From positions 164,997 through 228,996 of the forward strand of contig CANJUD010000004.1 in the NCBI GenBank assembly GCA_947477885.1: a DNA stretch of 64,000 bases, in the 5' to 3' direction. A program made the position numbers and the translations under genes. The notes beneath the pieces were generated by a model, which saw only the letters and a list, made by a program, of their open reading frames with translations, searched no databases and had not been told where the DNA came from. This DNA comes from Bacteroidota bacterium (GTDB lineage Bacteria; Bacteroidota; Bacteroidia; UKL13-3). Shown here piece by piece: positions 13,821 to 64,000 of the stretch. The first letter of the stretch is position 1. Every line of letters begins with the position of its first letter.

Positions 13821-13858
13821 GATAGTATAAAGTATATAGTATAAGGTATATAGTAAAG
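13821..13858. repeat. heptamer tandem array (TAGTATA/AAGTATA)x5
   Basis: The 7-bp periodicity is read directly from the sequence. It is the reverse complement of the TTATACT family. Confidence 0.65.
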
Positions 13859-13868
13859 GGTGAAATCT

Positions 13869-13950
13869 TTGTCAGTCTGAGTTCATCGAAGACGACACAG
13901 GAGAAGTTTGTCTACCCTTCGATAAACTCAGGATGACAAACTTTTTTTAT
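13869..13950. repeat. imperfect 13-bp inverted repeat plus GTTTGTC/GACAAAC hairpin followed by a T7 run
   Basis: The arms are gagttcatcgaag and cttcgataaactc. GTTTGTC is at 13896-13902 and GACAAAC at 13935-13941, followed by ttttttt. This looks like a plus-strand terminator, although both flanking genes are on the minus strand. Confidence 0.45.
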
Positions 13951-14642: not shown

Positions 14643-14705
14643 ACTTTATACCTTATACTATATACTTTCTACTTTTGTCCTTTGTCTTTCGTCTATTGTC
14701 TTTTA
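14643..14705. repeat. heptamer tandem array, 9 units (ACTTTAT x4 then TCTTTNG x4)
   Basis: It has a strict 7-bp period and fills the gap between the protease stop and the lipoprotein start. Confidence 0.65.
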
Positions 14706-30275: not shown

Positions 30276-31670
30276 TTAGTATCCCAATATCTTTAACATA
30301 CTTTCAGGGGTTTGTTCTTTATTGAACAATTTAAATGTATGTTCACCTTTTTCGTTTTTGTCTATAATAATATGTTTGGGGGCTGGTATTAAACAATGTT
30401 GAATGCCTCCATATCCTCCCAGTGATTCTTGATAAGCTCCTGTATGAAAAAATCCCATATATAATTCTTCATCATGGTGAAGTTTGGGCATGAACACTTG
30501 GTTGGTATGGCTATCACTATTATAAAAATCCTGTCCATCGCAAGTAAGTCCGCCTAGGTTGATGCGTTGAAACTCACGCTGCCAATGGTTTAAGGCAAGT
30601 AATATAAATTTCTGCCCGATGCCCCAAGTGTCAGGCAATGTAGTGATAAAACTACTGTCAATCATATACCAAAGTTCTTTATCGTTTTGCTGCTTTTGGC
30701 CAACTATTTTATATAATGTTGCACCACTCTCCCCTACTGTAAACGAACCAAACTCAGTAAATATATCTGGCTCGGGTACATCTTTTTCATCGCATATATA
30801 TTGTATAATCATTACAATCTGCTCTATCATATATTCATAATTGTGCTCAACGCCCAAACTATTATATATGGGCATACCGCCGCCAATATCAAACCAATCC
30901 AATGTATTGCACTCTTGGCGAAGGTCGCAGTATACATTTACCAAACGGGTAAGTTCACTCCAATAAAAAGTGGTATCTTTTATACCTGAGTTCACAAAAA
31001 AATGCATCATCTTTAAAGTGAATTTTGGATTATCTTTTATCTTTTGATTATATAAACGCAAAATCTTTTTGCTACTCATTCCCAATCGAGAAGTATATAC
31101 AGAGAAGTTAGGCTCTTCTTCTGTAGCTACTCTAATTCCAATCTTAATTGGAACAGGGCACATACTATCCAACAGGTCAATTTCATCGGTATTATCGAGC
31201 ACACAAACCAAATTTTCAAATCCCATTTGCACTAACTCTACCATCCCTTTTATATAGCTATCGGTTTTGTAACCATTGCATATAATCTTTTTATGGATAG
31301 GGAACCTACCATCTTTGTGCAATGACTTTATAATATCCAAATCGAATGCAGATGAAGTTTCTAAATCTACATCACTTTTAAGACATTCCTCAATAATGAA
31401 TTTGAAATGCGAACTTTTTGTACAATAACAATAATGATATTTACCTTTATATTTATGTTTCTCAATTGCCTTTGCAAACAAGTCTTTGGCAACCTGAATC
31501 TGAGAACCAATTTTTGGCAAATAAGTTAACTTCAATGGCGTACCATATTCTTTCACAATTTCCATCAAATTGAGGTCGTGAAAAAACAAGTTACCGTTTC
31601 GCACATCGTAACCGTGGCGTGGGAAGTAGAAGGTTTGCTCTACTAGATCTATATATTTGTTTTTAATCAT
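30276..31670 (-). CDS. speA: fold-type III PLP-dependent decarboxylase, likely arginine decarboxylase
   Basis: YGTPLKL sits near the N-terminus. The glycine-rich motif FDIGGGMP and the GAYQESLGG motif are typical of the Orn/DAP/Arg decarboxylase family. Substrate assignment is by family resemblance only. Confidence 0.6.
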   Translation of the reverse strand: MIKNKYIDLVEQTFYFPRHGYDVRNGNLFFHDLNLMEIVKEYGTPLKLTYLPKIGSQIQVAKDLFAKAIEKHKYKGKYHYCYCTKSSHFKFIIEECLKSDVDLETSSAFDLDIIKSLHKDGRFPIHKKIICNGYKTDSYIKGMVELVQMGFENLVCVLDNTDEIDLLDSMCPVPIKIGIRVATEEEPNFSVYTSRLGMSSKKILRLYNQKIKDNPKFTLKMMHFFVNSGIKDTTFYWSELTRLVNVYCDLRQECNTLDWFDIGGGMPIYNSLGVEHNYEYMIEQIVMIIQYICDEKDVPEPDIFTEFGSFTVGESGATLYKIVGQKQQNDKELWYMIDSSFITTLPDTWGIGQKFILLALNHWQREFQRINLGGLTCDGQDFYNSDSHTNQVFMPKLHHDEELYMGFFHTGAYQESLGGYGGIQHCLIPAPKHIIIDKNEKGEHTFKLFNKEQTPESMLKILGY

Positions 31671-31677
31671 TTTATTT

Positions 31678-31786
31678 AGTAATCAGTGGTTAGTAAACAG
31701 TAGTCAGCGTTATCCTGTTTTGCAATCAAAACAGGAAGTAAAGTAGCCGTATGGTACTGACTACTGTTAACTAACCACTGATTACT
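31678..31786. repeat. long palindromic element: 30-bp arms (AGTAATCAGTGGTTAGTAAACAGTAGTCAG) with 1 mismatch, and an inner hairpin CCTGTTTTG-caatc-AAAACAGG
   Basis: It is read directly from the sequence. It fills the 117-bp gap between the speA-like start and the nucleotidyltransferase stop. The arm sequence matches the CAGTAGT heptamer family at 59.8-62.6 kb. Confidence 0.8.
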
Positions 31787-31787
31787 A

Positions 31788-32783
31788 TTATTCATTTCCA
31801 AAATTTATTTCTGTGCTATCACCAATATTGAGACTTTGCTGTGCACCTTGGAAGGAAGCATCGTTCCCAATTAATGAATGATGAAGTATTGCATTTTCTA
31901 GATGAGAATGTGGGCCTATTATACTATCTTTTAATATCGAATATTTGATAACTGCACTATCGCCAATTGACACATAGGGACCTATAATACTATTGCTGAT
32001 TTGTGCAGTGGGGTCAATATATACAGGATGTATTATAATAGTATTTTCATAAGTTTTTGTTTCAATATTTTTTTGTCTTTTAAGTAAAGTAGAATTGGTT
32101 TCAAGCAGCATGTCTTTTTTGCCGCAATCGAACCAGTTATCAATTTCTTGTGTACGGAACTTCACGCCTGCATCTGCCATACGCATAAGTGCATCAGTGA
32201 GGTGATACTCGTTTTGTGTTTTTATTTTATTGTCGATATTATATTCTAGTGCTTCAATCAATTGGTCTGTTTCGATTATTTTATATAAACCTACCAATGC
32301 CAAATTTGATTTGGGTATATTGGGTTTCTCCACCAATTTAGAAATGAATCCTTGCCCGTCCAACTCAGCCACACCAAATGAGCGTGGGTCACTCACTTTT
32401 TTTACACCCAATAATGAGAATGGACTTTTTATAAAGGTATTTAAGTTAGTATCAAAAATAGTATCGCCTAATACAATCATCAATTCTTTGTCATTATTTA
32501 TATAATCTTTAGCCAACCAAATGGCGTAACCTATTCCTTTACCTGTAGTTTGTATAACAAATTGTGTGTTAATTTTCGGAAAGTTGTGTGTTATATATTC
32601 TTCAATTTTATCTCCCAAATATCCGATAATAAATATAAAATCATCAAAGCCCGCATCGATAAGCGGTTGTATAATATGGGCCAAAATAGGCTTGCCCGCC
32701 ACTGGTATCAGCGACTTGGGTTGTGTGTGCGTATGTGGCCTAAGCCTGCTGCCTATGCCTGCAACTGGGATTATTACCTGCAT
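31788..32783 (-). CDS. sugar-phosphate nucleotidyltransferase with C-terminal left-handed beta-helix
   Basis: The N-terminus, MQVIIPVAGIGSRLRP...PKSLIPVAGKPIL, is an NTP_transferase G-x-G-x-R motif. C-terminal hexapeptide repeats are present. Confidence 0.78.
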   Translation of the reverse strand: MQVIIPVAGIGSRLRPHTHTQPKSLIPVAGKPILAHIIQPLIDAGFDDFIFIIGYLGDKIEEYITHNFPKINTQFVIQTTGKGIGYAIWLAKDYINNDKELMIVLGDTIFDTNLNTFIKSPFSLLGVKKVSDPRSFGVAELDGQGFISKLVEKPNIPKSNLALVGLYKIIETDQLIEALEYNIDNKIKTQNEYHLTDALMRMADAGVKFRTQEIDNWFDCGKKDMLLETNSTLLKRQKNIETKTYENTIIIHPVYIDPTAQISNSIIGPYVSIGDSAVIKYSILKDSIIGPHSHLENAILHHSLIGNDASFQGAQQSLNIGDSTEINFGNE

Positions 32784-32825
32784 TTTTTTTAGTCGTTAGT
32801 CATTTAGTTATTAGGCGCTAGTGCC

Positions 32826-32843
32826 TCCCGATAGTTATCGGGA
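32826..32843. repeat. palindrome TCCCGATAGTTATCGGGA
   Basis: It is a near-perfect copy of the 9696-9713 palindrome. Confidence 0.7.
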
Positions 32844-32856
32844 CGGCGGCGGCTCA

Positions 32857-32940
32857 TTCATCTTTCATCTTTATACTTTATACTTTATACTATATACTTT
32901 ATACTTGCTCTCTCTCTTTTCCCTTCTCCACTCTCCTACT
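32857..32940. repeat. heptamer tandem array, 12 units (TTCATCT x2, TTATACT x5, TCTCTTT-like x5)
   Basis: The strict 7-bp period is read directly from the sequence. The array overlaps the last approximately 13 codons of tatC. Confidence 0.75.
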
Positions 32941-45767: not shown

Positions 45768-45877
45768 ATTAAATGACTGTGCTCCGAAGAGATTGACTGC
45801 GTCCAATTAAAATTTGCCACGTCGCCCTTCCCACAAGGAATGCACACTGCTCCTCGCAATGACGTAGTGGAAATTAT

Positions 45878-45921
45878 GCGTCAGCCCATTCACCATTCAT
45901 CATTTATAATTCATCATTATA
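45878..45921. repeat. GCGTCAGCCC anchor + heptamer array (CATTCAC CATTCAT CATTTAT AATTCAT CATTATA)
   Basis: It is read directly from the sequence. The array ends exactly at the TonB-receptor stop codon. Confidence 0.7.
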
Positions 45922-52216: not shown

Positions 52217-55200
52217 ATGATTAACTATCTAAAAATCAATTTAAAAAGTATTGGGCTTGCTATTGCAGCTTTAATGCTCGTAAACTTTGGAGCGTCCGCG
52301 CAGGGCTTTCTCCGAAACTCAACCTCATCTTCCCAAACCTCGGGTATTACAATTACAGAGGTAGCTGGATTTGGAAATCCAACCTTCGACTGGGACTGCA
52401 ATGGTTCCGTAAACTCAACCAACGATGAGTTTGTTGAAATTACCAATACCAGCCCCGACTCCATCGATATTAGTGGTTGGAAAATGGGTGACAATACCAA
52501 CATCTATATTTTTCCCAATGGCACTATATTAGGCCCAGGAAAAAGGGCAGTGATATTCCAAAATGGCTCTGGTACCACTGGAAGCAATTTCACAGCCGGT
52601 CCATCAACTTTTAATCCTGGCGATAGCAATTATTGCTTCCAATGGAATACCGGTATATCAAACACATCGGATGCAGTGGGTATTCGTAACAAAAATAATT
52701 TATATGTGAGTGTTCGATTTGCAAGTGCAACGCTTAGTAGTACCTTTACAAGCGGCGGAACTTTAGTAGGAAACTCGACCAACAACTCTAGTACCTCTGG
52801 GGCATCATGGCATAGGGTTAATTATACCAGCGATTTATGGGTAACAAGTACTGTAATTAGTAAAACTTTTAACTGGAGTACTGGTAGTGTAGTTTTTAAC
52901 AGTCCGAATGGAACACCTGGCAGAGATACCACAGGCAAACAAATGACACCCCCTACTCGCACTGGCACACAATCCATTACTTTTGGCTCGCCTACTTCTA
53001 CTGGCATACCCATCACTACCTTAAATGATACTTGCTGGAACTGTCGCCGTATTATAGTTATTAATGCTGGGACAAGTGTTACTTTTACGCCAACTGACAC
53101 AGTAAGTTATACCGGTGTAAATGCAAATTTCGGCTCAGCATCCGACCAAGGCAGTGGCAATAAAATTGTATATGACGGCTTTGCAACAAGCAATCCTGTT
53201 ACAGTTACTGGACTTTCATCAAGCACCAAATATGCATTTAAAGTATATGCATACAACGGCAAATCTCCAGCATCGGATATATCATATAGAACTTCAGGTG
53301 CAGCAACTGATACACTTTCAACTATCGCCTCTACAAACCCAGCAGTTAATGTATCTGTAAGCAGCAGCACAGGGTCAGAAGCTGCAGGATCTGTTATTAC
53401 TGTTACTGCTACCGCTTCATTTGCAGTAACTGGAAACCAAACAGTAAGTATTGGTGTGAGTGGAACTGGAATTACTGCAAGCGATTATTCTTTGAGTAAT
53501 TCAACTATTACAATCTTAAATGGCAATACAACTGGCACAGTAAATTTTACTGTAGCTAACGATACGTTGGGAGAAGGAAATGAAGTAGCTAAACTTACCA
53601 TTAGCGGCCCTTCATCAGGAATTGACTTGGGAGCCACTGCTTTTCAAAATGTAACTATCAGTGATGATGAGCCTACTGTGTCTGTTAGTGCATCTTCAAG
53701 CTCAGCAACCGAAGGCGACAGTATCACTTTAACTGCTACGCTAAGCAGCAGCGTTTCAACTCCACAAACGTTAAATGTAGCCATAACGGGTACAAATGTT
53801 TCTGTTAGTGATTATAGTTTGGGTGCAACTACTATTATAATACCTGCAAATACTACAAGTGGAACCACTAAATTATATATTACAGATGACAACATTCGTG
53901 AAGCTACTGAAACTTTTACTGCTACCATAAGCAGTCCCAGTGTTCGCACTTCAATAGGCAGCCCTAGCACTTCGAATATTTCTGTAACTGATAATGATGA
54001 CCAGTTATCATTAAATGGTATCAATAACTATTCATCTGTTGAAGACTTCAATACCTTATTAACCAACTCAGGAAATCAATGTCCGCGTGGATGGTATTTT
54101 GCTGAAGCTGGAGCCAATGGAAATACTTTGTACGATACCACTTCAGGTGCTACTTCAACAGGAAATACCTATTCCTGCGGTGCATTCAATAGCAGCGACC
54201 GTTCTCTTGGAAGCCTAACTACTGGTCCACTTACACCTGTATATATTGGTGTAAATATCAAAAACAATACAGGTGGACTTATCACACATTTAAATGTTTC
54301 TTATGTAGGTGAGCAATGGCGTTCAGGTAGCAATGGTACTGATAAATTTATTTGCCAGTATAGTTTAAATGCAAGCAGTGTGAGCGATTCTAGTGGTACT
54401 TGGAACGCAGCGAATACACTTGACTTTACTGCTCCTGTAGTTTCAGGTAGTGGCCTATTAAACGGCAATGCTTTTGGCAACCGCACTACATTTTCCGATA
54501 TATCATTTCAGCTAGGAACGGGGCTAAGCAGTGGCTCATCTGTTTGGCTCAGGTTTGTGGATGTGGATATTGCAGGCAGCGACCATACAATTGCAATTGA
54601 TAGCTTTAGTGTGAAAGCATTAAACCTAACTCCTGTAAAATATTATTTAGGCTCGAGCGGAAATTGTGACAATACAAGTTCTTGGTGGAGTAATAATAAT
54701 AGTACTGGAACTCACCCAAATAATTTCACTGATTCATTACAACACTTTATTATAATGAACCAGAGTAATGCAACCATATCAAGTGCATGGACAGTAAGTG
54801 GTTTCCAAGCTAAAGTAATATTGGGTGACAGTAGTAATAATATAGCTTTTACCATTCCATCATCAAATGCTTTTACTGGAAACATTGACGTTAAATATAA
54901 AGGCAACCTTATTATGCAGAATAATACAGTACCAACTATTGGAACTATTGAAACAGGTTCAACAATAGAATATGGACAAAGTTCAGGTATTACTATTCCA
55001 AATTCATCTAACTATTATAATCTTACTTTCTCTGGTTCAGGTGTAAAAACTATTAGCAGTGGTACTACTACTGTAAACGGAAACTTCTTAGCCAACAATA
55101 CTGCTTTGGCTTTTCCAGCATCAGCAACTACCTTAAATTTAGGTGGGAATTATACATTATCTGGTAATGTTTCGCAAGCTGATACTACTCGTGCTTGGGG

Positions 55201-58200
55201 GATTTTTACAACAACCAATACAAATCAAACTATTAGCGGAAACGGGAATAGTGCTTATATATTTAGAGTTACATCTACCAAAACAAATAGCAACCTAACT
55301 TTAAGTAATGTGAGATTGGTTGTATTGGAAGATACGAGACTTTTATTCAGTGGAACTGCTAAATTTATTGATGGCGGAAATACTATCGTAGTTGGCGACG
55401 ATGCTGTGATGGGCGGAGTAGATAGTGCGTATGTATTAACCGGAACTATTGAGGTTAAAAACACTTCTGCAAGTTCATCTAACTTTCAGGCTGATGCTAC
55501 TTTTGGTGGTGTAATAGTAGCACGATTAAATAATTTGATTTTGAACACAGGCAATACCAATAACCCATCGGTATTGTTTGACGGTTCAAGTAACGATGTT
55601 TATATTAATGGTGACCTTACTATATTATCTACCAATTCTGGCAACATAAGCTTAAGCAGCAATACCTACCATATTAAAGGAAATTACAACAACTATCGTA
55701 ATTCTAATATTATATCATCAGCTACAAGTACTATTATATTTGATGGAACCTCATCGCAAAGTATGGGCACCGCATATACCAATGGCGAAACCTTGAATAT
55801 TGTTACACTTAGTAACTCAAATGGATTAAGTTTAACAGGCAAAATATCCGTAAAAGGTGTACTGAGTTTGAGTAATAATATATTAACCGCAAGTGGAAGT
55901 TCGAGTAGAGTAATATTAACTTCTACTGGTTCATTAACAAGAGGTACCGGGTATATTAATGGTATCTTGCAAAAGAATGTGGCTACTGGTAGTAATGTAA
56001 CCAGCACTTTTGAAATTGGAAATGCTTCACAATATCTTCCCGTATCAATCACCTTTGCAAGTGTTACAACATCGGGCAATTTAGCTTTAAGTTCAATTGC
56101 AGCAAATCAAGCAAATATAGCCAGTGTATGCATTGATGCTGCCAAAACAATCAAACGCAATTGGACTTTTGAAAACAATGGTATTATATATACAAACTAT
56201 AATACGACGGTTACTTTTGCTGGTGCTGATACTACTGCAGGTGGTGCACATACAAACGCACTTGCAGCTGCGGTTTATAAGACATCTTGGTTTGCTGCCA
56301 ATATTGCTAGTCATACCGATTCTACAGTTACTTTAAGCAATATAGATAGTTTGGGCGATTTGCAATTGGGCGAACAGCGTGTGCTTACTTCTAATTTTGT
56401 TACTTCGGCAAGTAGTGCTTGTCAGAATTTAAATATAACAGTTACTTATACGGGTAATGGTTCCAATACTGCTAATTATACGTGGGATTTTAATGGAGCA
56501 ACCATTGTTAGCGGTTCAGGCAAAGGTCCTTATACAATTAAATGGTCAACTACTGGAACTAAAAATTTAAGTTTATCAGTAAGTGAAAATGGATGTACAA
56601 GCAATACCACCAATTTAAATATTTCAGTTTCTCAAAATGGCTGGACAGGTAGTATTGACAATGATTGGAATAAACCTGGAAACTGGTGTACCAATATTGT
56701 TCCTAACATTGGAACCAATGTATTAATACCATCAGGAGTTACAAATATGCCTATAGTAAGCAGTGCTGCAAATTGTAAAACCTTAACTATTGCAAACAAT
56801 GCAACTCTGATAATTATTACTGGTGGCAAACTTACCATTGATAGTATATATACCCGCAACGGACAGCTTGAACACATTGGAGGTTATCTAGTTTTAAATT
56901 TCCCTCAATTACTTGCTGCTGACACACACCATGTTCTTACTTTAAATGGTATAGGTGCATATACACTTAGTGGTAATATACAAATCAATAATTTAATTAC
57001 TATTGGAACAGGGACAACTTTGAACGATGGCGGTAACATTATTAAAATCACCAAAGATATTATAAATAACGGAACACATACAGGTACCGGTAAAATGGTA
57101 TTTAGCAGTGCAGCATCACAAACTATTAGTGGAACTGGAAATACCTACAAAAATATTGAACTAATATCGTCAAGTACTTTGCGTACAGCAAATAATATGA
57201 CAGTATTGGGCAGTATTGGTCTCAATCCTGGGTCATTATCTTATCAAGGTTTTAATTTTACAATTGGCAGTACTAGTAGCTCAGATAGTAATAAAGTGTA
57301 TGGCAATGGTTTGTTAGTAAATACCAGCAATACAGGCACTTTGACTATTTTAGGAGATACTGGTGCGGCTAGATTAATTGGTTTAAGAGTTCATTCAAAA
57401 GCAACAGTTATAGTTAACCGCTCAAAAGGTGTAAAATTAGGTGGCGACATGGTATTGGGCGGACTACTAAACTTAACTTTAGGCACATTAGATATGAATG
57501 GCAATAGTTTATCTATTGGAACTGTAAGTACCTCGACCGGCGGTGTAACTACAAGTGCGGGTTCTATTACGAATTCAGGATCAACAGGTTCATTTACTAT
57601 ATGTGGAAACTTTGCAGCAAGTGCAGTCACCAATTTAAAATTGGGTAGTCAGTACAAAGCTACTGTTTCATTGCCAAGTGGTGTTACCTTAGGACAAGGC
57701 TGCAATGTTTCAAGTTTGTTTGCTATATCAAATGGCTTTGTAAACTTAAATGGATACACTGTTGCGCTCGGTGGCAATGCAACCATAAGTGAAGGTGCAG
57801 GACAAACATTTAGAGGTAATAGTGGTTCAGTGCAAATTTCTAAAACTTATTCAGCCCCACTATCTAATACCAACCCTGGTGGATTAGGTTTAACCTTGTC
57901 GACTAATAACAATCCCGGCACAGTTACTATAATTCGTTCACATGAAGTATTCACAAATGGTTCGGGCAATAGTATAAAACGCAATTTCCAAGTAACAGCT
58001 AGTAATACTAGTGGTCTTAGAGCTACTAATCTATTAGTTAATTATGATAGTACGGAGTTAAATGGATCTAACAGAAATTTCTTACGTTTAAATAGCTCTA
58101 CCAATAGTGGAAGCACTTGGACAACCATCGCTCCAGTAATACGCACTTATGCAAACACTGCATCTGGGTACGCTGGAAGCAATAGTTCTACCATGAGTTT

Positions 58201-58510
58201 GTCATCTGCTATCATATATACTTTAAGCGATTCGCTTAATTCACCTTTACGTGTTCTTCAAAATATTGACCCTGTAAACCAATCGGTTAGCAACAATAAA
58301 GTATGGCCAGTTCCATTTAACGACAATTTGAATATACAAGTTGATGAATTGTCTAATATTTCTATATATGATATGGAAGGAAAACTAGTTGCGAATGCAA
58401 AAGCCAATGGCCTTACAACTATCAATACTAACATGTTACCTTTTGGAGTATACACATTAAGAATCGACTCGAATGGAGGAAGCTCGGTTCACAAAATTGT
58501 AAAACAATAA
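52217..58510 (+). CDS. giant (2097 aa) T9SS type-A cargo: N-terminal LTD, Calx-beta/Ig-like repeats, C-terminal Por_Secre_tail
   Basis: It has a signal peptide. The LTD reads ITITEVAGFGNPTFDWDCNGS...EFVEITNTSPDSIDISGWKMGD. Calx-beta-like blocks carry SDYSLS...VANDTLGEGNE. The C-terminus reads ISIYDMEGKLVANAKANGLTTINTNMLPFGVYTLRID. Confidence 0.88.
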   Translation: MINYLKINLKSIGLAIAALMLVNFGASAQGFLRNSTSSSQTSGITITEVAGFGNPTFDWDCNGSVNSTNDEFVEITNTSPDSIDISGWKMGDNTNIYIFPNGTILGPGKRAVIFQNGSGTTGSNFTAGPSTFNPGDSNYCFQWNTGISNTSDAVGIRNKNNLYVSVRFASATLSSTFTSGGTLVGNSTNNSSTSGASWHRVNYTSDLWVTSTVISKTFNWSTGSVVFNSPNGTPGRDTTGKQMTPPTRTGTQSITFGSPTSTGIPITTLNDTCWNCRRIIVINAGTSVTFTPTDTVSYTGVNANFGSASDQGSGNKIVYDGFATSNPVTVTGLSSSTKYAFKVYAYNGKSPASDISYRTSGAATDTLSTIASTNPAVNVSVSSSTGSEAAGSVITVTATASFAVTGNQTVSIGVSGTGITASDYSLSNSTITILNGNTTGTVNFTVANDTLGEGNEVAKLTISGPSSGIDLGATAFQNVTISDDEPTVSVSASSSSATEGDSITLTATLSSSVSTPQTLNVAITGTNVSVSDYSLGATTIIIPANTTSGTTKLYITDDNIREATETFTATISSPSVRTSIGSPSTSNISVTDNDDQLSLNGINNYSSVEDFNTLLTNSGNQCPRGWYFAEAGANGNTLYDTTSGATSTGNTYSCGAFNSSDRSLGSLTTGPLTPVYIGVNIKNNTGGLITHLNVSYVGEQWRSGSNGTDKFICQYSLNASSVSDSSGTWNAANTLDFTAPVVSGSGLLNGNAFGNRTTFSDISFQLGTGLSSGSSVWLRFVDVDIAGSDHTIAIDSFSVKALNLTPVKYYLGSSGNCDNTSSWWSNNNSTGTHPNNFTDSLQHFIIMNQSNATISSAWTVSGFQAKVILGDSSNNIAFTIPSSNAFTGNIDVKYKGNLIMQNNTVPTIGTIETGSTIEYGQSSGITIPNSSNYYNLTFSGSGVKTISSGTTTVNGNFLANNTALAFPASATTLNLGGNYTLSGNVSQADTTRAWGIFTTTNTNQTISGNGNSAYIFRVTSTKTNSNLTLSNVRLVVLEDTRLLFSGTAKFIDGGNTIVVGDDAVMGGVDSAYVLTGTIEVKNTSASSSNFQADATFGGVIVARLNNLILNTGNTNNPSVLFDGSSNDVYINGDLTILSTNSGNISLSSNTYHIKGNYNNYRNSNIISSATSTIIFDGTSSQSMGTAYTNGETLNIVTLSNSNGLSLTGKISVKGVLSLSNNILTASGSSSRVILTSTGSLTRGTGYINGILQKNVATGSNVTSTFEIGNASQYLPVSITFASVTTSGNLALSSIAANQANIASVCIDAAKTIKRNWTFENNGIIYTNYNTTVTFAGADTTAGGAHTNALAAAVYKTSWFAANIASHTDSTVTLSNIDSLGDLQLGEQRVLTSNFVTSASSACQNLNITVTYTGNGSNTANYTWDFNGATIVSGSGKGPYTIKWSTTGTKNLSLSVSENGCTSNTTNLNISVSQNGWTGSIDNDWNKPGNWCTNIVPNIGTNVLIPSGVTNMPIVSSAANCKTLTIANNATLIIITGGKLTIDSIYTRNGQLEHIGGYLVLNFPQLLAADTHHVLTLNGIGAYTLSGNIQINNLITIGTGTTLNDGGNIIKITKDIINNGTHTGTGKMVFSSAASQTISGTGNTYKNIELISSSTLRTANNMTVLGSIGLNPGSLSYQGFNFTIGSTSSSDSNKVYGNGLLVNTSNTGTLTILGDTGAARLIGLRVHSKATVIVNRSKGVKLGGDMVLGGLLNLTLGTLDMNGNSLSIGTVSTSTGGVTTSAGSITNSGSTGSFTICGNFAASAVTNLKLGSQYKATVSLPSGVTLGQGCNVSSLFAISNGFVNLNGYTVALGGNATISEGAGQTFRGNSGSVQISKTYSAPLSNTNPGGLGLTLSTNNNPGTVTIIRSHEVFTNGSGNSIKRNFQVTASNTSGLRATNLLVNYDSTELNGSNRNFLRLNSSTNSGSTWTTIAPVIRTYANTASGYAGSNSSTMSLSSAIIYTLSDSLNSPLRVLQNIDPVNQSVSNNKVWPVPFNDNLNIQVDELSNISIYDMEGKLVANAKANGLTTINTNMLPFGVYTLRIDSNGGSSVHKIVKQ

Positions 58511-58512
58511 CA

Positions 58513-58554
58513 ATAATTAGTATAAAGACAAAAGTATAAAGTATATAGTACAAA
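58513..58554. repeat. heptamer array (TAGTATA AAGACAA AAGTATA AAGTATA TAGTACA)
   Basis: It has 7-bp periodicity and follows directly after the giant gene stop. Confidence 0.6.
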
Positions 58555-58592: not shown

Positions 58593-58637
58593 TTAGATAT
58601 ATAGAACAAAGATGAAAGACTAGAAGAAGTAAATATG

Positions 58638-58680
58638 GCGTCAGCCCATTAACAATTAACAATTAACAATTCAGCATGAA
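58638..58680. repeat. GCGTCAGCCC anchor + (ATTAACA)x3 heptamers
   Basis: The sequence is ggcgtcagcccattaacaattaacaattaacaattcag. Confidence 0.7.
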
Positions 58681-58777: not shown

Positions 58778-59836
58778 TTGCCCTACAAACGCACCAAGAG
58801 CAAGTTACACCAATGGGTGTTCAATCGACGCAATAAGATATCATTGCTACTAGCAGCTATTAGTGCTATTTTCAGGTATTATGTTTTCCCTAACCTCGAT
58901 TGGTCTTGGCATTGCGAAACCTTCATCATCATTTTCTTTGTATGGGCTATCTTATTGAATAGTGCTGCATGGGTCGAACGTTTTTTGAACTGCCATTATC
59001 CACACCAACGCAATGTGGCCAAGCGTATCGCCTTGCAGATACTGATGGGTATGTCGATTATGACTATTATACAGCTCATTTTTAATGCATTCTTTTTAAA
59101 TCACATTTTCGATTATGCCATGCAAAATCGCATGTATCCAGAATTGTTAAATCACCTTGAATATATATTTGTAACTGGAAACTTATTCTTATCGTTTGTT
59201 GTAAATTTATTATATGTAAGCGACCATTTTATCAAAGAATGGAAAACTACATTGATACATAATGAACGAATCAAAAAAGAATCGGCGATGTTGCAGTTTG
59301 AGAATCTGAAAAACCAACTAAATCCGCATTTTCTTTTTAATAGTCTTACTTCATTAAATAGTTTGATCTATGAAAACCAACAACTGGCTTCTGAGTTTTT
59401 GCAACAACTTTCGAAAGTATATAGATATTTATTGTTGCACAAAGATGATAACTTGGTAAAACTTGGAGAAGAATTACAATTTATCAATAGCTTTGTGATG
59501 CTACTCCACACCCGTTTCGACGGACAATTGCAGATAGAAATAAATGTGCCCGAAGAAGATAAACTTCTTACCATCGTACCAGTTACAACTCAAATTTTAA
59601 TTGAGAATGCTATTAAACATAATATAATATCCGCATCGAAACCATTACACATAAAAATATATACAAAAAACAAATACCTAGTAGTAGAAAATAATCTGCA
59701 ACGTAAATCCATCGTAGAAACATCTAACAAGCTCGGACTAGAAAACATGAAAAAGCTCTACCAAATTATTGCAAACAGAGACGTTGAAATTGTAGAAAAT
59801 GAGCATACTTTTGTCGTAATAGTTCCATTACAGTAA
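58778..59836 (+). CDS. LytS/YehU-family sensor histidine kinase
   Basis: The His_kinase (PF06580) motif is LKNQLNPHFLFNSLTSL, and about 4 N-terminal TM helices are present. The track start is TTG; GTG at 58817 is an alternative. Confidence 0.82.
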   Translation: MPYKRTKSKLHQWVFNRRNKISLLLAAISAIFRYYVFPNLDWSWHCETFIIIFFVWAILLNSAAWVERFLNCHYPHQRNVAKRIALQILMGMSIMTIIQLIFNAFFLNHIFDYAMQNRMYPELLNHLEYIFVTGNLFLSFVVNLLYVSDHFIKEWKTTLIHNERIKKESAMLQFENLKNQLNPHFLFNSLTSLNSLIYENQQLASEFLQQLSKVYRYLLLHKDDNLVKLGEELQFINSFVMLLHTRFDGQLQIEINVPEEDKLLTIVPVTTQILIENAIKHNIISASKPLHIKIYTKNKYLVVENNLQRKSIVETSNKLGLENMKKLYQIIANRDVEIVENEHTFVVIVPLQ

Positions 59837-60135
59837 ACAGTAGTCAGTAGTCAGTAGTCAGTAGTCAGTAGTCAGTAGTCAGTAGTCAGTAGTCAGTAGT
59901 CAGTAGTCAGTAGTCAGTAGTCAGTAGTCAGTAGTCAGTAATCAGTAGTCAGTAGTCAGTAGTCAGTAATCAGTAGTCAGTAGTCAGTAGTCAGTAGTCA
60001 GTAGTCAGTAGTCAGTAATCAGTAGTCAGTAGTCAGTAATCAGTGCCATACGGCAGATACTTCGCTACTACCAATTACTGCTCACTAAAAAATGTGCGTT
60101 AGCTACTGACAACTGTTTACTGACTACTGCTCACT
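59837..60135. repeat. (CAGTAGT)n array of about 30 units (59837-60044) followed by inverted-orientation ACTGAC-type units (60076-60135), forming a long imperfect palindrome
   Basis: It is read directly from the sequence. It begins at the first base after the HK stop codon. Confidence 0.9.
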
Positions 60136-60139
60136 AAAT

Positions 60140-60178
60140 ATGAAAATAATAAATGGCTTCATCAAATCACTAAAATAA
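60140..60178 (+). pseudogene. 13-codon relic (MKIINGFIKSLK*) of a four-helix-bundle gene
   Basis: It joins the start and end of gene 62082-62429 across an AAAATWATAAA direct repeat. It is followed by ctaacccctaaaaaatcaGGCGTCAGCCactgactactg. Confidence 0.7.
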
Positions 60179-60241
60179 CTAACCCCTAAAAAATCAGGCG
60201 TCAGCCACTGACTACTGATTACTGACCACTGTTTACTAAAT

Positions 60242-60280
60242 ATGAAAATAATAAATGGCTTCATCAAATCAATAAAATAA
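60242..60280 (+). pseudogene. second relic (MKIINGFIKSIK*)
   Basis: It has the same architecture as 60140-60178 and is followed by the same 60-bp tail. Confidence 0.7.
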
Positions 60281-60342
60281 CTAACCCCTAAAAAATCAGG
60301 CGTCAGCCACTGACTACTGACCACTGACCACTGTTTACTACC

Positions 60343-61107
60343 ATGATTAAAACCCTAATAATAGAAGACGAACCCTTAGTAGCTAAGGACTTAATGCATC
60401 AGTTAAAAAAACTGAACGAGGAAATTGAAATTATCACAACGCTGAGCAGCACTGCTGAGGCAATAGAATGGTTTCAAAATAACCCACAGCCCGATTTGAT
60501 ATTTATGGATATACAATTGAGCGACGGTGTAAGCTTCGACATTTTGAAAGCTGTGAAAGTAACCGCTCCTATCATTTTCACTACGGCTTACGACCAATAT
60601 GCAATCCAAGCGTTTAAACATAATAGTATTGATTATTTGTTAAAACCTATTGATGCGGAAGAACTTCAACATGCCTTCGATCAGTATAATATATATATAT
60701 CTGAGAGCGGTGATTTTACTGTAAAAATAAAAGGTTTATTGGCTAAGCTGAGTGAGGCTGCAGGCAAATATAAAGAACGTTTTATGGTGCAAACCCGAAA
60801 TACGCTCATGCCAGTCCCGGCTAGTGATATCGCTTATTTTTCAAAAGAAGAATTAATATATATATATACCAAAGAAAACCAACGCTATCTCTCGGAGAAT
60901 AATAGCATGGAAGAACTTGAGGAGTTTTGCGATCCTAAATTATTTTACCGGGCTAACAGGCAAGTAATTATTAATGTGGATATGATAGAACGTGTAAAAA
61001 GTAGCTATAACGGAAAACTATTGGCAGTGCTCAAACCGCCCTTTGCTATGGAGATAGACATAAGCCGCGAGAAAGCATCTGATTTTAAAGAATGGCTCGA
61101 TTCGTAG
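60343..61107 (+). CDS. LytR/AlgR-family response regulator (receiver + LytTR DNA-binding domain)
   Basis: The receiver domain has the phospho-acceptor Asp in LIFMDIQLSDG and the conserved Lys in YLLKP. The C-terminal LytTR domain reads FFRANRQVIINVDMI. The ATG follows the repeat immediately. Confidence 0.88.
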   Translation: MIKTLIIEDEPLVAKDLMHQLKKLNEEIEIITTLSSTAEAIEWFQNNPQPDLIFMDIQLSDGVSFDILKAVKVTAPIIFTTAYDQYAIQAFKHNSIDYLLKPIDAEELQHAFDQYNIYISESGDFTVKIKGLLAKLSEAAGKYKERFMVQTRNTLMPVPASDIAYFSKEELIYIYTKENQRYLSENNSMEELEEFCDPKLFYRANRQVIINVDMIERVKSSYNGKLLAVLKPPFAMEIDISREKASDFKEWLDS

Positions 61108-61229
61108 AATTACGAATTGCGAATTGCGAACTGGCTAACGCCTGATTCATATACTGCCTGTGGTTGTGTCTTTTGACCAACCACACTTTTAGCCACTATT
61201 CGTAATTTTTAATTCGTAATTCGTAATTA
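61101..61229. repeat. palindromic heptamer element: (ATTACGA/ATTGCGA)x3 ... inner hairpin TGTGGTTG-n11-CAACCACA ... (ATTCGTA)x4
   Basis: It is read directly from the sequence. It overlaps the RR stop codon. Confidence 0.75.
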
Positions 61230-61255
61230 TCTGAATTCCTATTTACCTTTGCTAC

Positions 61256-61825
61256 ATGGCAACTAAAATATATACAAAGACCGGAGACAAAGGCAGCACA
61301 GGACTTATAGGCGGCAAGCGTGTTTCCAAATCGCATGAGCGGATTGAGGCTTATGGCACTGTAGATGAACTTAATTCATACTTAGGATTGGTAAGTGATG
61401 CCATTACTATTGATAGCAAAAAAGAAGAACTAAAATATATCCAAGACCGCTTGTTTACGGTTGGTTCTAACTTGGCTTGCGACGATGAAAATGCCAAAAT
61501 GATTCTCCCCGACCTCACTGAAAATGATATAACACTTCTCGAAAAATACATCGACCAAATGGATACAGAATTGGAACCTCTCAAAAACTTTATTATACCC
61601 GGCGGACATATACATATATCATACTGCCACATTGCACGCTGCGTGTGCCGCAGGGCCGAGCGACTCTGTGTGCAACTAATGGAGCATAGTTTTGTGCCAC
61701 CGCTTATTATACAATATTTAAATAGATTGAGCGATTATCTATTTGCTTTATCACGTTATATAGGGAAGCATTTGGGAGTAGCAGAGATTGTATGGGAACC
61801 GAGAAAAGTAAACAGTAGTCAGTAG
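61256..61825 (+). CDS. PduO-type ATP:cob(I)alamin adenosyltransferase
   Basis: MATKIYTKTGDKGSTGL...ERIEAYGTVDELNS is the MMAB/PduO N-terminal signature. The last 6 codons (KVNSSQ) are encoded by the following heptamer array. Confidence 0.82.
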   Translation: MATKIYTKTGDKGSTGLIGGKRVSKSHERIEAYGTVDELNSYLGLVSDAITIDSKKEELKYIQDRLFTVGSNLACDDENAKMILPDLTENDITLLEKYIDQMDTELEPLKNFIIPGGHIHISYCHIARCVCRRAERLCVQLMEHSFVPPLIIQYLNRLSDYLFALSRYIGKHLGVAEIVWEPRKVNSSQ

Positions 61826-62081
61826 TCAGTAAACAGTAGTCAGTAAACAGTAGTCAGTAAACAGTAGTCAGTAAACAGTAGTCAGTAAACAGTAGTCAGT
61901 AAGCAGTAGTCAGTAAACAGTAGTCAGTAAGCAGTAGTCAGTAAGCAGTAGTCAGTAAGCAGTAGTCAGTAAGCAGTAGTCAGTAAGCATTAGTCAGTAA
62001 ACAGTAGTCAGTAATCAGTAATCAGTTTGCTGACGCCGAATGGCACTGACTACTGTTTACTGACTACTGACCACTAAAATT
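61808..62081. repeat. (AAACAGTAGTCAGT)n 14-bp (2x7) tandem array of about 16 units, then GCTGACGCC anchor in inverted orientation and ACTGAC-type units up to the next ATG
   Basis: It is read directly from the sequence. Confidence 0.9.
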
Positions 62082-62429
62082 ATGAAAATTATAAAATTTG
62101 AAGATATTATAGCTTGGCAAAAATCACAAGATTTTGCTGTAGAAATATATAGTTCATTTAAAGAATCAAAAGATTGGGATTTTAGAAATCAAATTTGCAG
62201 AGCGACGGTTTCTATTTCAAACAATATTGCCGAAGGTTTTGACAGAAGCTCTAATGCTGACTTTAAAAGGTTTCTTTATATGTCGTTAGCCTCATGCAGT
62301 GAAGTGAAATCCATGCTAATTTTAGCAAAACGCCTTGAATATTTAAATGAGAAAACAAGTAAAACCTTAATATTGCAATCGGAAGAAATTTCTAAAATAA
62401 TAAATGGCTTCATCAAATCACTAAAATAA
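62082..62429 (+). CDS. four-helix-bundle protein (TIGR02436 / PF05635, 23S-rRNA-intervening-sequence protein family; Avd-like)
   Basis: MKIIKFEDIIAWQKSQDFAVEIYSSF...NNIAEGFDRSS..DFKRFLYMSLASCSEVKSMLILAKRLEYL...KIINGFIKSLK matches the family consensus (EDLxVWQKA...NIAEGFGR...FL.IA.GSL.E......LA..L.YI). Confidence 0.85.
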   Translation: MKIIKFEDIIAWQKSQDFAVEIYSSFKESKDWDFRNQICRATVSISNNIAEGFDRSSNADFKRFLYMSLASCSEVKSMLILAKRLEYLNEKTSKTLILQSEEISKIINGFIKSLK

Positions 62430-62642
62430 CTAACCACTAAAAAGCACGCGTAAGCCACTGACTACTGTTTACTGACCACTGTTTACTAAATATGAAAATA
62501 ATAAATGGCTTCATCAAATCACTAAAATAACTAACCCCTAAAAAATCAGGCGTCAGCCACTGACTACTGACTACTGTTTACTGACCAATGACCACTAAAA
62601 AGCACGCGTAAGCCACTGACTACTGTTTACTGTCTACTAATT
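62430..62642. repeat. repeat tail units (CTAACCNCTAAAAAgcaCGCGTaAGCCACTGACTACTGTTTACTGACCACTG) x3 with an embedded relic mini-ORF
   Basis: It is read directly from the sequence. The last unit ends 2 nt before the ispG ATG. Confidence 0.8.
62492..62530 (+). pseudogene. third relic mini-ORF (MKIINGFIKSLK*)
   Basis: It is identical to the relic at 60140-60178. Confidence 0.7.
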
Positions 62643-64000
62643 ATGAGAAGAAAAACCACCACCGTCACAATAGGAAACACGCCCATGGGCAGTGATTTCC
62701 CCATCCGTATACAATCCATGACTACCACGGATACAATGGACACAGAGAAAACTGTGGAGCAAAGTATTCGTATGATAGAGAGTGGTTGCGAGTATGTTCG
62801 TATTACTGCACCAAGTATTAACGAAGCACAGAATTTACAGAATATTATAGACGAATTACGCAAAAGTGGATATCATACTCCCCTAGTTGCTGATATACAT
62901 TTTACGCCTAATGCAGCGGAAGTTGCAGCGAGAATTGTAGAAAAAGTTCGCATCAATCCTGGGAATTTTGCAGATAAGAAAAAGTTTGAAACGATTGAAT
63001 ATAATGATGCAGAATATGAAGAAGAACTAGAACGCATCAAACAAAAATTCACGCCGCTTATACATATATGCAAAGAGCACGGCACTGCTATGCGTATTGG
63101 CACAAACCACGGCTCCCTGAGCGACCGAATCATGAGCAGATATGGAGACACGCCGCTAGGGATGGTAGAATCAGCTTTGGAATTTTTGAGAATTTGCAGG
63201 GCAGGAGACTATCATAATATTGTGCTCAGTATGAAAAGCAGCAACCCGCAAGTGATGGTGCAAGCGTATAGATTATTGGTGCAACGCATGGATATGGAAA
63301 ACATGCACTACCCTTTGCATATAGGTGTTACCGAAGCAGGCGATGGTGACGATGGCAGAATTAAATCTGCTATAGGAATTGGAACTTTATTGGAAGAAGG
63401 ATTGGGTGATACCGTCCGTGTTTCGCTTACCGAAGATCCAGAATTTGAAGCACCGGTTGCAAAAGCTTTGGTAGAAAGATATAATATCCCCGCTCCCGCC
63501 GAATTGATTACAGAAGATTATTCTGACTCCCTAAAAGTGAAAGAACATTATAGTCCTTTCAGTTATCAAAAACGCAAGACTATAGAAGTAGCAAACATCG
63601 GTGGACACCAATTGCCAAGGGTTATAGCTGATTTTTCCAACTTAGATACTATAACAGAATTCGACCTGCAGCAAGTGGGACATATATATGATGCTGCACT
63701 GGATAAATGGCATATGACCGAACAAGGTTGCGATTATATATATGCGAAAAATAGTATTATAAATTTCATGTTGCCCAATGGCTTGAAAGCAATATATGAT
63801 TATCATACTTGGGAGAAATTAGCTGATAGAGAAAATGCTTTTCCACTAATTGAAATTGGAAATACAAAAGACAATATTACCTGGCATTCCAAATTGAATT
63901 TTGTATATATCAATGATATTTCTCAAATATCTAAACTCCTGCATATCCCTGAAAACGCAGTGCTGGTGCTAGAGTGCAAACACGCCAGACCACTTACTAT
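62643..64000 (+). CDS. ispG: 4-hydroxy-3-methylbut-2-enyl diphosphate synthase (long form with inserted domain), partial at the window end
   Basis: VTIGNTPMGSDFPIRIQSMTTTDT...RITAPSINEAQNL...VRINPGNFADKK...IGTNHGSL...LHIGVTEAGDG. There is no stop codon before the window end. Confidence 0.9.
   Translation, partial: MRRKTTTVTIGNTPMGSDFPIRIQSMTTTDTMDTEKTVEQSIRMIESGCEYVRITAPSINEAQNLQNIIDELRKSGYHTPLVADIHFTPNAAEVAARIVEKVRINPGNFADKKKFETIEYNDAEYEEELERIKQKFTPLIHICKEHGTAMRIGTNHGSLSDRIMSRYGDTPLGMVESALEFLRICRAGDYHNIVLSMKSSNPQVMVQAYRLLVQRMDMENMHYPLHIGVTEAGDGDDGRIKSAIGIGTLLEEGLGDTVRVSLTEDPEFEAPVAKALVERYNIPAPAELITEDYSDSLKVKEHYSPFSYQKRKTIEVANIGGHQLPRVIADFSNLDTITEFDLQQVGHIYDAALDKWHMTEQGCDYIYAKNSIINFMLPNGLKAIYDYHTWEKLADRENAFPLIEIGNTKDNITWHSKLNFVYINDISQISKLLHIPENAVLVLECKHARPLT

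Follow-up and report, generated by a model that had tools for sequence, protein, structure and literature searches.

Intervening sequences (IVSs) of the S23p type in 23S rRNA were reportedly described by Ralph and McClelland in 1993, and the STRR heptanucleotide repeats of heterocystous cyanobacteria are said to have been reported by Mazel et al. in 1990. Several STRR units contain CAGT or ACTG. IVSs of 23S rRNA that encode S23p are known in Leptospira, Coxiella burnetii and Brucella (Warrier et al. 2016, PMC4990558). The Coxiella IVS has a 28-bp terminal stem and is cleaved by RNase III, and just before the ATG of S23p it carries 2 to 3 tandem GACAGAT units, the number of which varies between strains; the 5' cut of RNase III falls at the start of the first of these units (PMC4990558). 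Arrays of TAACTGA and other heptamers, up to 43 copies long, occur in five Bacteroidetes according to MacGregor 2015 (PMC4679880), who also gives the function of heptamer arrays in Bacteroidetes, cyanobacteria and Beggiatoaceae as unknown and, after Mrazek 2007, names heptamers as the commonest long simple-sequence repeat in most genomes. Dispersed palindromic repeats of another type, the REP and REPIN elements, go with RAYT transposases (Bertels & Rainey 2011, PMC3116915). Here we analyze a window of 64,000 nucleotides from a Bacteroidota bacterium (contig CANJUD010000004.1, positions 164,997 to 228,996), in which tandem arrays with a strict 7-nt period recur between genes and bracket the gene of a four-helix-bundle (4HB) protein, known as S23p or 23S rRNA-intervening-sequence protein (23S_rRNA_IVP). 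With moderate confidence, we interpret these arrays as the paired arms of an IVS-type cassette that carries the S23p/4HB gene and resides within operons, or as derivatives of this cassette that lack an open reading frame (ORF). The canonical element consists of a G-rich arm built of R-T-H-A-G-K-N units, a cargo gene or a centre, and a complementary C-rich arm. What ORF-less copies retain is only a short centre rich in GC. It reads GCCATACGGCAG... / ...GGCGTCAGCC in this lineage and is the anchor motif behind which a preliminary description of the window had seen several arrays begin.

Arrays of period 7 or 14 with 0% indels were detected with Tandem Repeats Finder (TRF) at every locus named in that description (array starts at 13822, 14641, 31755, 32857, 45886, 58519, 58648, 59838, 61107, 61198 and 61820). 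Exact arrays of at least 2.5 copies numbered 12 for period 7 (0.1 expected in shuffled sequences) and 2 for period 14 (0 expected), and periods 4 to 6, 8 to 13 and 15 stayed at chance level in the window. The (CAGTAGT)n array, which had been put at about 30 units, comprises 29.6 copies with 96% matches (59838-60044). The window is a short-read (k141) metagenome contig, which makes the exact length of this 207-bp array insecure, yet 2 independent assemblies (L001 and L002) agree on it. The observation of the arrays is thereby confirmed, and the interpretation first given to them is partly supported. The view that dispersed heptamer arrays were unknown in Bacteroidota has to be given up in the light of those in five Bacteroidetes (MacGregor 2015, PMC4679880). 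The preliminary description had also overlooked the 4HB gene that the arrays bracket, and its remnants at 60085-60340.

The region from 59.8 to 62.6 kb holds one intact cassette, one decayed cassette and one ORF-less hairpin (features are on the plus strand unless a strand is given). The intact cassette lies between the cobalamin adenosyltransferase gene (cobA, 61256-61825) and ispG (GcpE/IspG, ATG at 62643). Its G-rich arm, (CAGTAGT CAGTAAA/G)x15, occupies 61808-62026 and overlaps the last codons and the stop of cobA; TRF reports it as (CAGTAGTCAGTAAA)n with 14.8 copies at 61820-62026. An inverted centre follows (62027-62044, minus strand), the reverse complement of which, GCCATTCGGCGTCAGC, is both centre motifs fused, and then a C-rich arm, ACTGACT ACTGTTT ACTGACT ACTGACC ACT (62045-62075), that ends 6 nt before the start codon of the 4HB gene. 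This gene (62082-62429) encodes a protein of 115 amino acids that matches PF05635 (E = 1.5e-32) and TIGR02436 (E = 1.8e-32) and whose relatives in the PDB, 2GSC and 2RLD, were both deposited with 5 chains. A weak match links it to PHROG 3206, annotated as Avd protein of diversity-generating retroelements (DGRs) (E = 2.9e-4). PADLOC has no defence-system model for it, and no nuclease or recombinase domain was recognisable in it. The dN/dS ratio is 0.09-0.11 in comparisons with L006 and L095, 2 related loci introduced below, and 0.06-0.13 overall; the protein is under purifying selection, hence functional. The 3' side of the cassette (62430-62642) is made of three modules, each an anchor followed by an arm of ACTGNNN units: a degenerate anchor GCACGCGTAAGCC (62444-62456) with a C-arm at 62457-62487, an anchor at 62549-62558 with a C-arm at 62559-62596, and a degenerate anchor at 62602-62614 with a C-arm at 62615-62638. 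A copy of a mini-ORF, described next, lies at 62482-62520.

The decayed cassette sits between the genes of a LytS-type histidine kinase (HK, 58778-59836) and a LytTR response regulator (RR, 60343-61107). Its G-rich arm is the 29.6-copy array, which has CAGTAAT units interspersed and begins 2 nt past the HK stop. The centre (60045-60104) starts with GCCATACGGCAGAT... and continues into a degenerate anchor, GTGCGTTAGCT, and a C-rich arm found by TRF follows (ACTGACA ACTGTTT ACTGACT ACTGCTC, 60105-60129). The centre motif CAGT-GCCATACGGCAG is present also at array centres in L006, L092 and L095. In a metagenome-wide scan, GCCATACGGCAGAT gave 120 matches, all of which we regard as chance 14-mer matches because none adjoins a heptamer array. 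What remains on the RR side is a run of 2.5 tandem 102-bp units (60085-60340, TRF period 102), each with a mini-ORF, an anchor and a C-arm: mini-ORFs MKIINGFIKSLK (60140-60178) and MKIINGFIKSIK (60242-60280), both closed by a stop, anchors GGCGTCAGCC at 60197-60206 and 60299-60308, and C-arms at 60207-60237 and 60307-60340. The first mini-ORF joins the opening three codons of the 4HB gene to the closing nine, and arose by deletion between two AAAATWATAAA repeats. A hidden Markov model (HMM) built from the 4HB alignment finds the C-terminal 12-13 residues at 60110-60175, 60212-60277 and 62462-62527, and no further trace of 4HB in the window beyond the gene and these three remnants. An intact 4HB gene occupies the same HK|RR site in L006 and L095. 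On these sequence grounds 60085-60340 is the remnant of a 4HB gene, in a cassette that decayed through an internal deletion and then unequal recombination. The ORF-less hairpin lies between RR and cobA (61107-61228, fold z = -7.5). It consists of a G-arm of GAATTAC/GAATTGC units (61107-61130), a centre with an inverted anchor GGCTAACGCC (61133-61142) plus a nested small hairpin, and a C-arm of ATTCGTA units (61198-61228).

The anchor does recur at arrays: GCGTCAGCC is found 5 times (0.17 expected) and GGCGTCAGCC with up to 1 mismatch 8 times (0.70 expected), 7 of these 8 at array centres and in both orientations. Two of the positions given for it change: the copy placed at 60188 lies at 60198, and the inverted copy placed at 62031 spans 62028-62037. 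Three of the 5 exact copies (60198, 60300 and 62550) are not independent because they all sit within copies of one 102-bp unit. As a signal in its own right the anchor was rejected, since it belongs to the element centre and to the 3' flank of 4HB, in both orientations.

The link between arrays and 4HB genes extends through Bacteroidota. A scan with an alignment of 4HB homologues, keeping one genome per species, provided 80 Bacteroidota loci (710 kb) from many families, with Chitinophagaceae, Flavobacteriales, Saprospiraceae, Pedobacter, Cytophagales and Bacteroidales among the groups represented. In these loci TRF counted 218 period-7, 84 period-14 and 55 period-21 arrays, compared with 20 of period 6 and 68 of period 8. 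Arrays with a period of 7 or its multiples cover 29-40% of the bases within 100 nt of the 4HB gene on either side, 10-14% between 100 and 200 nt away, 0.5% past 2 kb and 0.17% of the gene itself, so that coverage beside 4HB genes is about 60- to 80-fold above the level beyond 2 kb. An array lies within 200 nt upstream at 60 of 78 loci, downstream at 62 of 79, on at least one side at 71 of 77 and on both at 48 of 77. Intergenic regions that touch a 4HB gene contain an array in 113 of 143 cases (79%), and others in the same loci in 50 of 374 (13%). Several metagenome-assembled genomes (MAGs) supply more than one locus, which indicates that the gene is multi-copy in many Bacteroidota. Two 4HB cassettes may also stand a few kb apart or in tandem (L029 and L032 on one Lunatimonas contig; L045, 5001-5810). 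Many 4HB homologues are on contigs of 1-2 kb.

The arms have a fixed polarity. Upstream of 4HB genes, 52 of 56 informative arrays are G-rich on the sense strand and downstream 55 of 62 are C-rich (GC skew +0.35 and -0.29, respectively), and adjacent array pairs less than 600 nt apart run G-then-C in 51 cases and C-then-G in 2. This polarity is real and not an effect of gene orientation, because a dyad reads alike on both strands; pairing alone leaves it unexplained. In 36 of the 51 G-then-C pairs the arms are 150-600 nt apart, the size of a 4HB gene, and all but one of these bracket the reference gene, the sole exception (L053) adjoining a second, partial 4HB-like ORF. The remaining 15 pairs form hairpins whose arms are separated by fewer than 150 nt, too little to house an ORF. 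Cargo other than 4HB was rejected as a general rule: only 4 G-to-C pairs spaced by at least 150 nt miss the reference gene, one of which adjoins a second partial 4HB-like ORF and three of which enclose unrelated ORFs. The arrays had been thought to share their period only, with the unit sequence free. This does not hold, because the 133 units, once rotated and aligned, give the core R-T-H-A-G-K-N (A 98%, G 91%, T 89%) with 6.54 bits of information, compared with the 3.39±0.12 bits of letter-shuffled units allowed the same rotation.

Within a locus, the two arms match each other. Local alignment of the upstream arm with the reverse complement of the downstream arm scored a median of 38 within loci and 22 between loci, and scores of at least 40 were reached at 32 of 78 loci and in 9% of cross-locus pairs. 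Of 4 variable unit positions, 2.80 were common to both arms of a locus, a value that none of 2000 permutations of loci reached; permuted loci gave 1.82. Arm lengths are correlated (rho = 0.46, p = 0.001; medians 44 and 42.5 nt); the median arm has about 5 units, and the largest in the 80 loci has 22, exceeded by the 30 of the window. RNA duplex energies were -45 kcal/mol within loci and -34 kcal/mol between loci, the latter being strong too because many loci share CAGT-type units, and an upstream hairpin often mimics a direct repeat; this comparison was replaced by the DNA alignment test and the test of variable unit positions. In the window, folding bore out the inverted-arm hairpins of the preliminary description in all three segments tested: 31660-31800 (-60.7 kcal/mol, z = -12), 61095-61260 (-50.5 kcal/mol, z = -7.5) and 61800-62660 (-254 kcal/mol, z = -13.2). 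In the last of these, the long G-arm pairs in turn with all four C-arms and the ORF is placed in the loop.

Cassettes are gained and lost between close relatives, as the HK|RR and cobA|ispG junctions show. The closest locus, in a Chitinophagaceae MAG (L006, 92% identity of the 4HB protein), has an intact 4HB gene between HK and RR, and its contig stops before cobA|ispG. L095, L096 and L097 (RR identity 87%) combine an intact 4HB gene at HK|RR with a 132-nt ORF-less hairpin at cobA|ispG; the window has the remnant at the former and the intact gene at the latter. L092 (RR 90%) carries at HK|RR a 71-nt ORF-less hairpin, AAGGAGT..GGCGTCAGCC..TCCTTAT, and at cobA|ispG a 117-nt element with non-complementary arms, GTAAGGA .. 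GCCATACGGCAG .. CGACTAA. L098 (RR 84%) has no array at either junction, only spacers of 34 nt and 300 nt, and in L099 and L100 (RR 61%) HK and RR overlap and cobA and ispG have other neighbours, which makes that junction not comparable. From these junctions it follows that the anchor persists while the arm unit changes. The RR|cobA hairpin of the window is absent in L092, L095 and L098. Its arm unit ATTCGTA (inverted TACGAAT) equals the last 7 nt of the RR gene (GATTCGTAG), and this 3'-end sequence pre-exists in the hairpin-less L092 (window 61095-61130, L092 4808-4872), a single post-hoc case, which hints at arm units being taken from adjacent sequence. A possible kinship with miniature inverted-repeat transposable elements was considered: inverted arms are present, and relatives hold both empty and filled sites; a target-site duplication could not be called because the flanks have diverged too far. 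The neighbourhood itself is rearranged between close relatives. In L092 the kinase is preceded by a DDE transposase and an ATPase (48-1361), and an extra ORF of 196 amino acids lies between RR and cobA (4872-5462).

Copy number also differs between samples. The window is identical to a metagenome contig in ENA (L001), and samples with the same RR protein depart from it in the larger repeats alone: 158 bp at 62475-62590 are missing from L002, and the 102-bp unit is present in about 2.5 copies in the window, about 5.5 in L004 and at least 3.5 in L003. The contigs of L004 and L005 start inside the (CAGTAGT)n array, as short-read assembly predicts. The suggestion that slippage shapes the arrays agrees with this and with the orthologous HK-proximal arm, which has 30 units in the window where L006 has 4.5. 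As an explanation, phase variation of a coding frame was rejected: the arrays are intergenic and the variation between samples comes in 102-bp and 158-bp units and not in 7-bp steps, the only coding overlap to consider being the last codons of the adenosyltransferase gene, which enter an array.

In the Bacteroidota loci, the 4HB gene points the same way as its upstream neighbour in 68 of 77 cases, as its downstream neighbour in 65 of 78 and as both neighbours in 57 of 74, at median gaps of 83 and 73 nt. Some junctions recur from family to family; they appear to be ogt|alkB, pyruvate dehydrogenase E1|E2 and moaE|moaC, names that we read from the flanking sequence and not from annotation. Beyond Bacteroidota, 12 of 14 loci inspected have G-then-C heptamer arms on both sides of the 4HB gene. 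Examples are Nostoc punctiforme (TCAGGAG x7, gene, CTCCTGA x3), Anabaena sp. 90 (CAGGTGA/CTGTCAC) and Nostoc edaphicum (GGGAGTA/TCCCTAC), and Nostoc PCC 7120 has a clear C-arm downstream only. When 72,556 plasmids were searched by tblastn with the 4HB protein, 27 matches were obtained, at least 21 of them cyanobacterial (Nostoc 10, Calothrix 3, Trichormus 2, others) and 4 from Riemerella. Genes for 23S_rRNA_IVP inside cas operons have been noted before (PMC3936711); cyanobacterial 4HB genes lie there at cas6|cas4 and cas10|cmr3, and cas-operon cases with heptamer arms are among L086 (Anabaena sp. 90 pANA02), L223 (Picosynechococcus) and L224 (Pseudanabaena). Xanthomonas, Stenotrophomonas, Dokdonella and Luteimonas (L230-L235) carry between accB and accC an orthologue of XCC0516, the crystallised S23p (2GSC), with GGGAATC-type arms upstream and CCCATTC-type arms downstream. 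In these Xanthomonadales the C-rich arm reaches the accC start codon, and no obvious Shine-Dalgarno sequence is seen. An Azospirillum locus has a heptamer-periodic stem (CAGAGGA CGGATGA CAGAGGA CGGAGGA facing TCCGTCC TCTGTCT TCTGTCA TCCGTCT), and its flanks, read without annotation, would make it a genuine 23S rRNA IVS.

We propose that the cassette rides on read-through transcription of its host operon and that its two arms would pair in the transcript as a long stem. Such pairing tolerates slippage because any 7-nt register works. By analogy with the IVSs of 23S rRNA, RNase III may cut the stem, which would release the 4HB message and leave the flanking cistrons usable; insertion within operons, and even within rRNA, would be tolerated because the cut frees the message. 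Array length would change by slipped-strand mispairing, and the number of larger units by unequal recombination between C-arms. Several observations weigh against this interpretation. Neither a mobilising enzyme nor a target-site duplication was identified for this organism, and the presence of the accB|accC site throughout an order suggests vertical inheritance over frequent movement. Many arrays have no 4HB gene nearby (the 13% of other intergenic regions given above; in the window 8 of 28, or 29%), and the arm pair at 13822-14704 encloses an unrelated lipoprotein-like ORF. The arrays of Pseudanabaena, (AAAGCTA)15 and (AAAGCCA)9, are direct and not inverted. Among mismatches between the arms of Bacteroidota, those that G·U pairing would tolerate number 83 and those of the A·C type 128 (p = 0.002), and A·A mismatches are the most frequent, which reflects the surplus of A in the sense strand; common origin and concerted evolution, and not selection for pairing, could be what makes the arms match. 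The arms are not complementary in the cobA|ispG element of L092 and in the element at 58519/58648 of the window, and since core and polarity are kept where pairing is not, the motif itself may be what is recognised. Finally, the array lengths derive from short-read assemblies.

If the motif is recognised, the heptamers could be binding sites, in RNA or in single- or double-stranded DNA, of a pentameric 4HB protein that maintains, spreads or regulates through the arrays in the manner of RAYTs, with arm pairing secondary. We judge this rather unlikely, although it stays alive because arm mismatches are not biased toward G·U and some arms are not complementary. In its favor, the wobble test shows no sign of pairing at the RNA level, core and G-then-C polarity survive without complementarity, this core is found again in other phyla, purifying selection on the protein is strong, and the median arm of about 5 units recalls the 5 chains of 2GSC and 2RLD. 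The distant relationship to Avd points the same way, as Avd binds nucleic acid in DGRs. The S23p of Xanthomonas is moreover a homopentameric toroid, as quoted from Lin 2006 in PMC4990558. This account is set back by the absence of a recognisable nuclease or recombinase domain, by the count of about 9 array loci to 1 intact 4HB gene in the window, and by the covariation and length match of the arms, which a pure binding-site model does not require. A different view is that the arrays act alone in the mRNA as regulatory or insulating spacers, the 4HB gene merely lodging there: if the 7-nt unit contains a stop codon, every reading frame is closed within 21 nt, the C-arm, poor in G and placed directly before the next start codon, would be an unstructured translation leader, and the hairpin would modulate termination or stability. 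Most variants of the core do include TAA, TAG or TGA, C-arms finish 2-7 nt ahead of the ATGs of RR (60343), 4HB (62082) and ispG (62643), and TAACTGA repeats lie mostly a few nt before start codons, for which translational control was proposed (MacGregor 2015, PMC4679880). We consider it improbable nonetheless, as it accounts neither for the array frequency of 79% beside 4HB genes against 13% elsewhere nor for arm covariation, the same arms appear to occur within 23S rRNA, which is untranslated, and relatives cope at the same junction with a 34-nt spacer or with overlapping genes.

That the arrays are neutral simple-sequence repeats, formed by slippage that favors 7-nt units, as reportedly proposed by Mrazek 2007, and with no link to genes, would suit the free variation of array length among relatives and the report that heptamers are the commonest intergenic tandem repeat in prokaryotes (Mori 2019, PMC6344855, and Mrazek 2007 as quoted in PMC4679880). 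It is already strongly disfavoured, and we regard it as very unlikely, given the coverage excess of about 60- to 80-fold beside 4HB genes, the polarity of 51 pairs to 2, the conserved core, the intergenic control and the arrangement of the arrays in dyads with matched arms. We give still scanter credence to a healing of breaks, in which a telomerase-like activity adds G-rich heptamers to both 3' ends at the centre before these are rejoined. This is the only model that directly predicts G-then-C on both strands together with a conserved small palindromic centre, and it could draw on the kinship between 4HB and Avd, which is the partner of a reverse transcriptase. It is, however, purely speculative: a reverse transcriptase was found in 0 of the 27 window ORFs scanned with Pfam (a scan that took in part of the ORFs), there is no sign of a template RNA, and the periodicities of 14 nt and 102 nt resemble the outcome of slippage and unequal crossing-over.

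The window contains further arrays of this kind. Upstream of HK, a degenerate G-arm of AGTATAA... (58519-58554) is followed by a hairpin like an intrinsic terminator, and then by an anchor GGCGTCAGCC (58637-58646) with the C-arm (ATTAACA)x3.4 (58648-58671). At 45877-45904 an anchor variant TGCGTCAGCC precedes a C-arm of CCATTCA x2.7. The ORF-less hairpin at 31678-31787 (fold z = -12) has a G-arm and a C-arm of 30 nt each around a centre that contains an inverted GCCGTATGGT motif as well as a nested hairpin. The element at 32789-32906 has G-type heptamers (TTAGTCG...), a centre with the palindrome CCCGATAGTTATCGGG and C-arms of TTCATCT and CTTTATA x5.4. In the element between uvrC and an S8 peptidase gene, a G-arm of AGTATAA/AGTATAT (13822-13855) and the complementary C-arm TTATACT... 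(14641-14704) bracket not 4HB but the lipoprotein-like ORF mentioned above (13947-14642, minus strand, 231 amino acids), which matches no Pfam or NCBIfam family and is possibly an alternative cargo of the same kind of cassette; a GTCATCCTGAGTTTATCGAAGG-type hairpin is also present there. Small unrelated palindromes are nested in centres or arms at 31713-31734, 61154-61181, 32828-32843 and 13865-13935 (for instance CCTGTTTTG..CAAAACAGG, TGTGGTTG..CAACCACA and CCCGATAGTTATCGGG), as well as in L095 (1464-1604 and 3405-3538, CCCGCCGCGGCGGG), and look like very small elements inserted into arrays. Two giant secreted proteins with a Por_Secre_tail for type IX secretion (2097 and 1749 amino acids, encoded at 52217-58510 and 14693-19942) are consistent with a Bacteroidota chromosome. 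At gathering thresholds, Rfam detected no rRNA or other RNA family anywhere in the window, and the window ORFs scanned include no mobile-element genes.

Seen together, heptamer repeats, the orphan 4HB/S23p family and the IVSs of 23S rRNA, so far treated as three subjects, appear to be a single object. In the literature that we searched, which was incomplete, nobody seems to have stated that 4HB genes and heptamers are linked in general, and such silence is no evidence that none has. Should the link hold genome-wide, it offers an experimentally tractable explanation for the origin of heptamer arrays, and would explain how small genes can sit harmlessly within essential operons (accBC, pdh, moa, cas) and rRNA. 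More tentatively, and with more doubt than belief, S23p/4HB genes and heptamer arrays may form one ancient system across phyla in which the pentamer recognises, maintains or spreads the repeats. The heptamers of Xanthomonas, the STRRs of cyanobacteria and the TAACTGA repeats of Beggiatoaceae and Bacteroidetes would all belong to such a system, which would give the prime-number periodicity an origin and a very large family of orphan proteins a function. On the practical side, the arrays break short-read assemblies and can be mistaken for phase-variation or CRISPR-like repeats.

Among the systems described before, STRRs resemble the elements of the window in being tandem heptamers at many intergenic loci per genome, and similarly built heptamer arrays border the 4HB genes of cyanobacteria. 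STRRs differ in host phylum, the host here being a Chitinophagaceae-like bacterium of the Bacteroidota, the units seen here (CAGTAGT, CAGTAAA and others) are presumably not canonical STRR units, and we know of no description of STRRs as arms of a gene cassette. Avd of DGRs, a pentameric four-helix bundle, is a distant sequence relative of the 4HB protein through PHROG 3206, and PF05635 is reportedly taken up in a review of DGRs (PMC10053308). A DGR context was rejected, as Pfam found no reverse transcriptase among the neighbours and large ORFs; template and variable repeats were not specifically searched for. A transposon context was rejected as well, the window ORFs scanned yielding no transposase, Y1 included. 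With REPINs and RAYTs, the elements share dispersal as short intergenic palindromes, ORF-less copies that outnumber the gene, and an associated gene that itself lies between inverted repeats; they differ in that the associated protein is a four-helix bundle (PF05635 only) and not a Y1 transposase, that tandem heptamer arrays take the place of single palindromes, and that mobility is hypothetical here. The TAACTGA repeats are alike in their intergenic position, strict 7-nt period and mixing with other heptamers, in a unit that contains ACTG (TAACTGA is a rotation of ACTGATA), in forward copies just before start codons, in long arrays in Bacteroidetes and in indels of 7-nt steps between strains (MacGregor 2015, PMC4679880); the sections and terms searched in that paper yielded no dyads, fixed polarity, centre motif or link to 4HB. 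Membership in the exact TAACTGA family was rejected, since the window contains no exact dimer, the nearest match having 2 mismatches in 14 nt (62008-62028) and the best unit being TTACTGA. The closest likeness is to S23p IVSs: here too a PF05635 ORF (E = 1.5e-32) is enclosed as in a long stem by complementary termini (fold z = -13.2), the element is carried within a host transcript, and tandem heptamers that vary in number lie 5' of the ORF, as they do in Coxiella. The differences are that the cassette sits between protein genes (HK|RR, cobA|ispG) and not in helix 9, 25 or 45 of 23S rRNA, that its arms are long arrays of up to 30 units, that ORF-less derivatives are dispersed through the genome, and that its 4HB gene is under purifying selection whereas the S23p of Coxiella is decaying. 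The element is, in this comparison, an IVS-type S23p cassette outside rRNA with heptamer arrays for arms, which RNase III would process as it does the IVSs of 23S rRNA.

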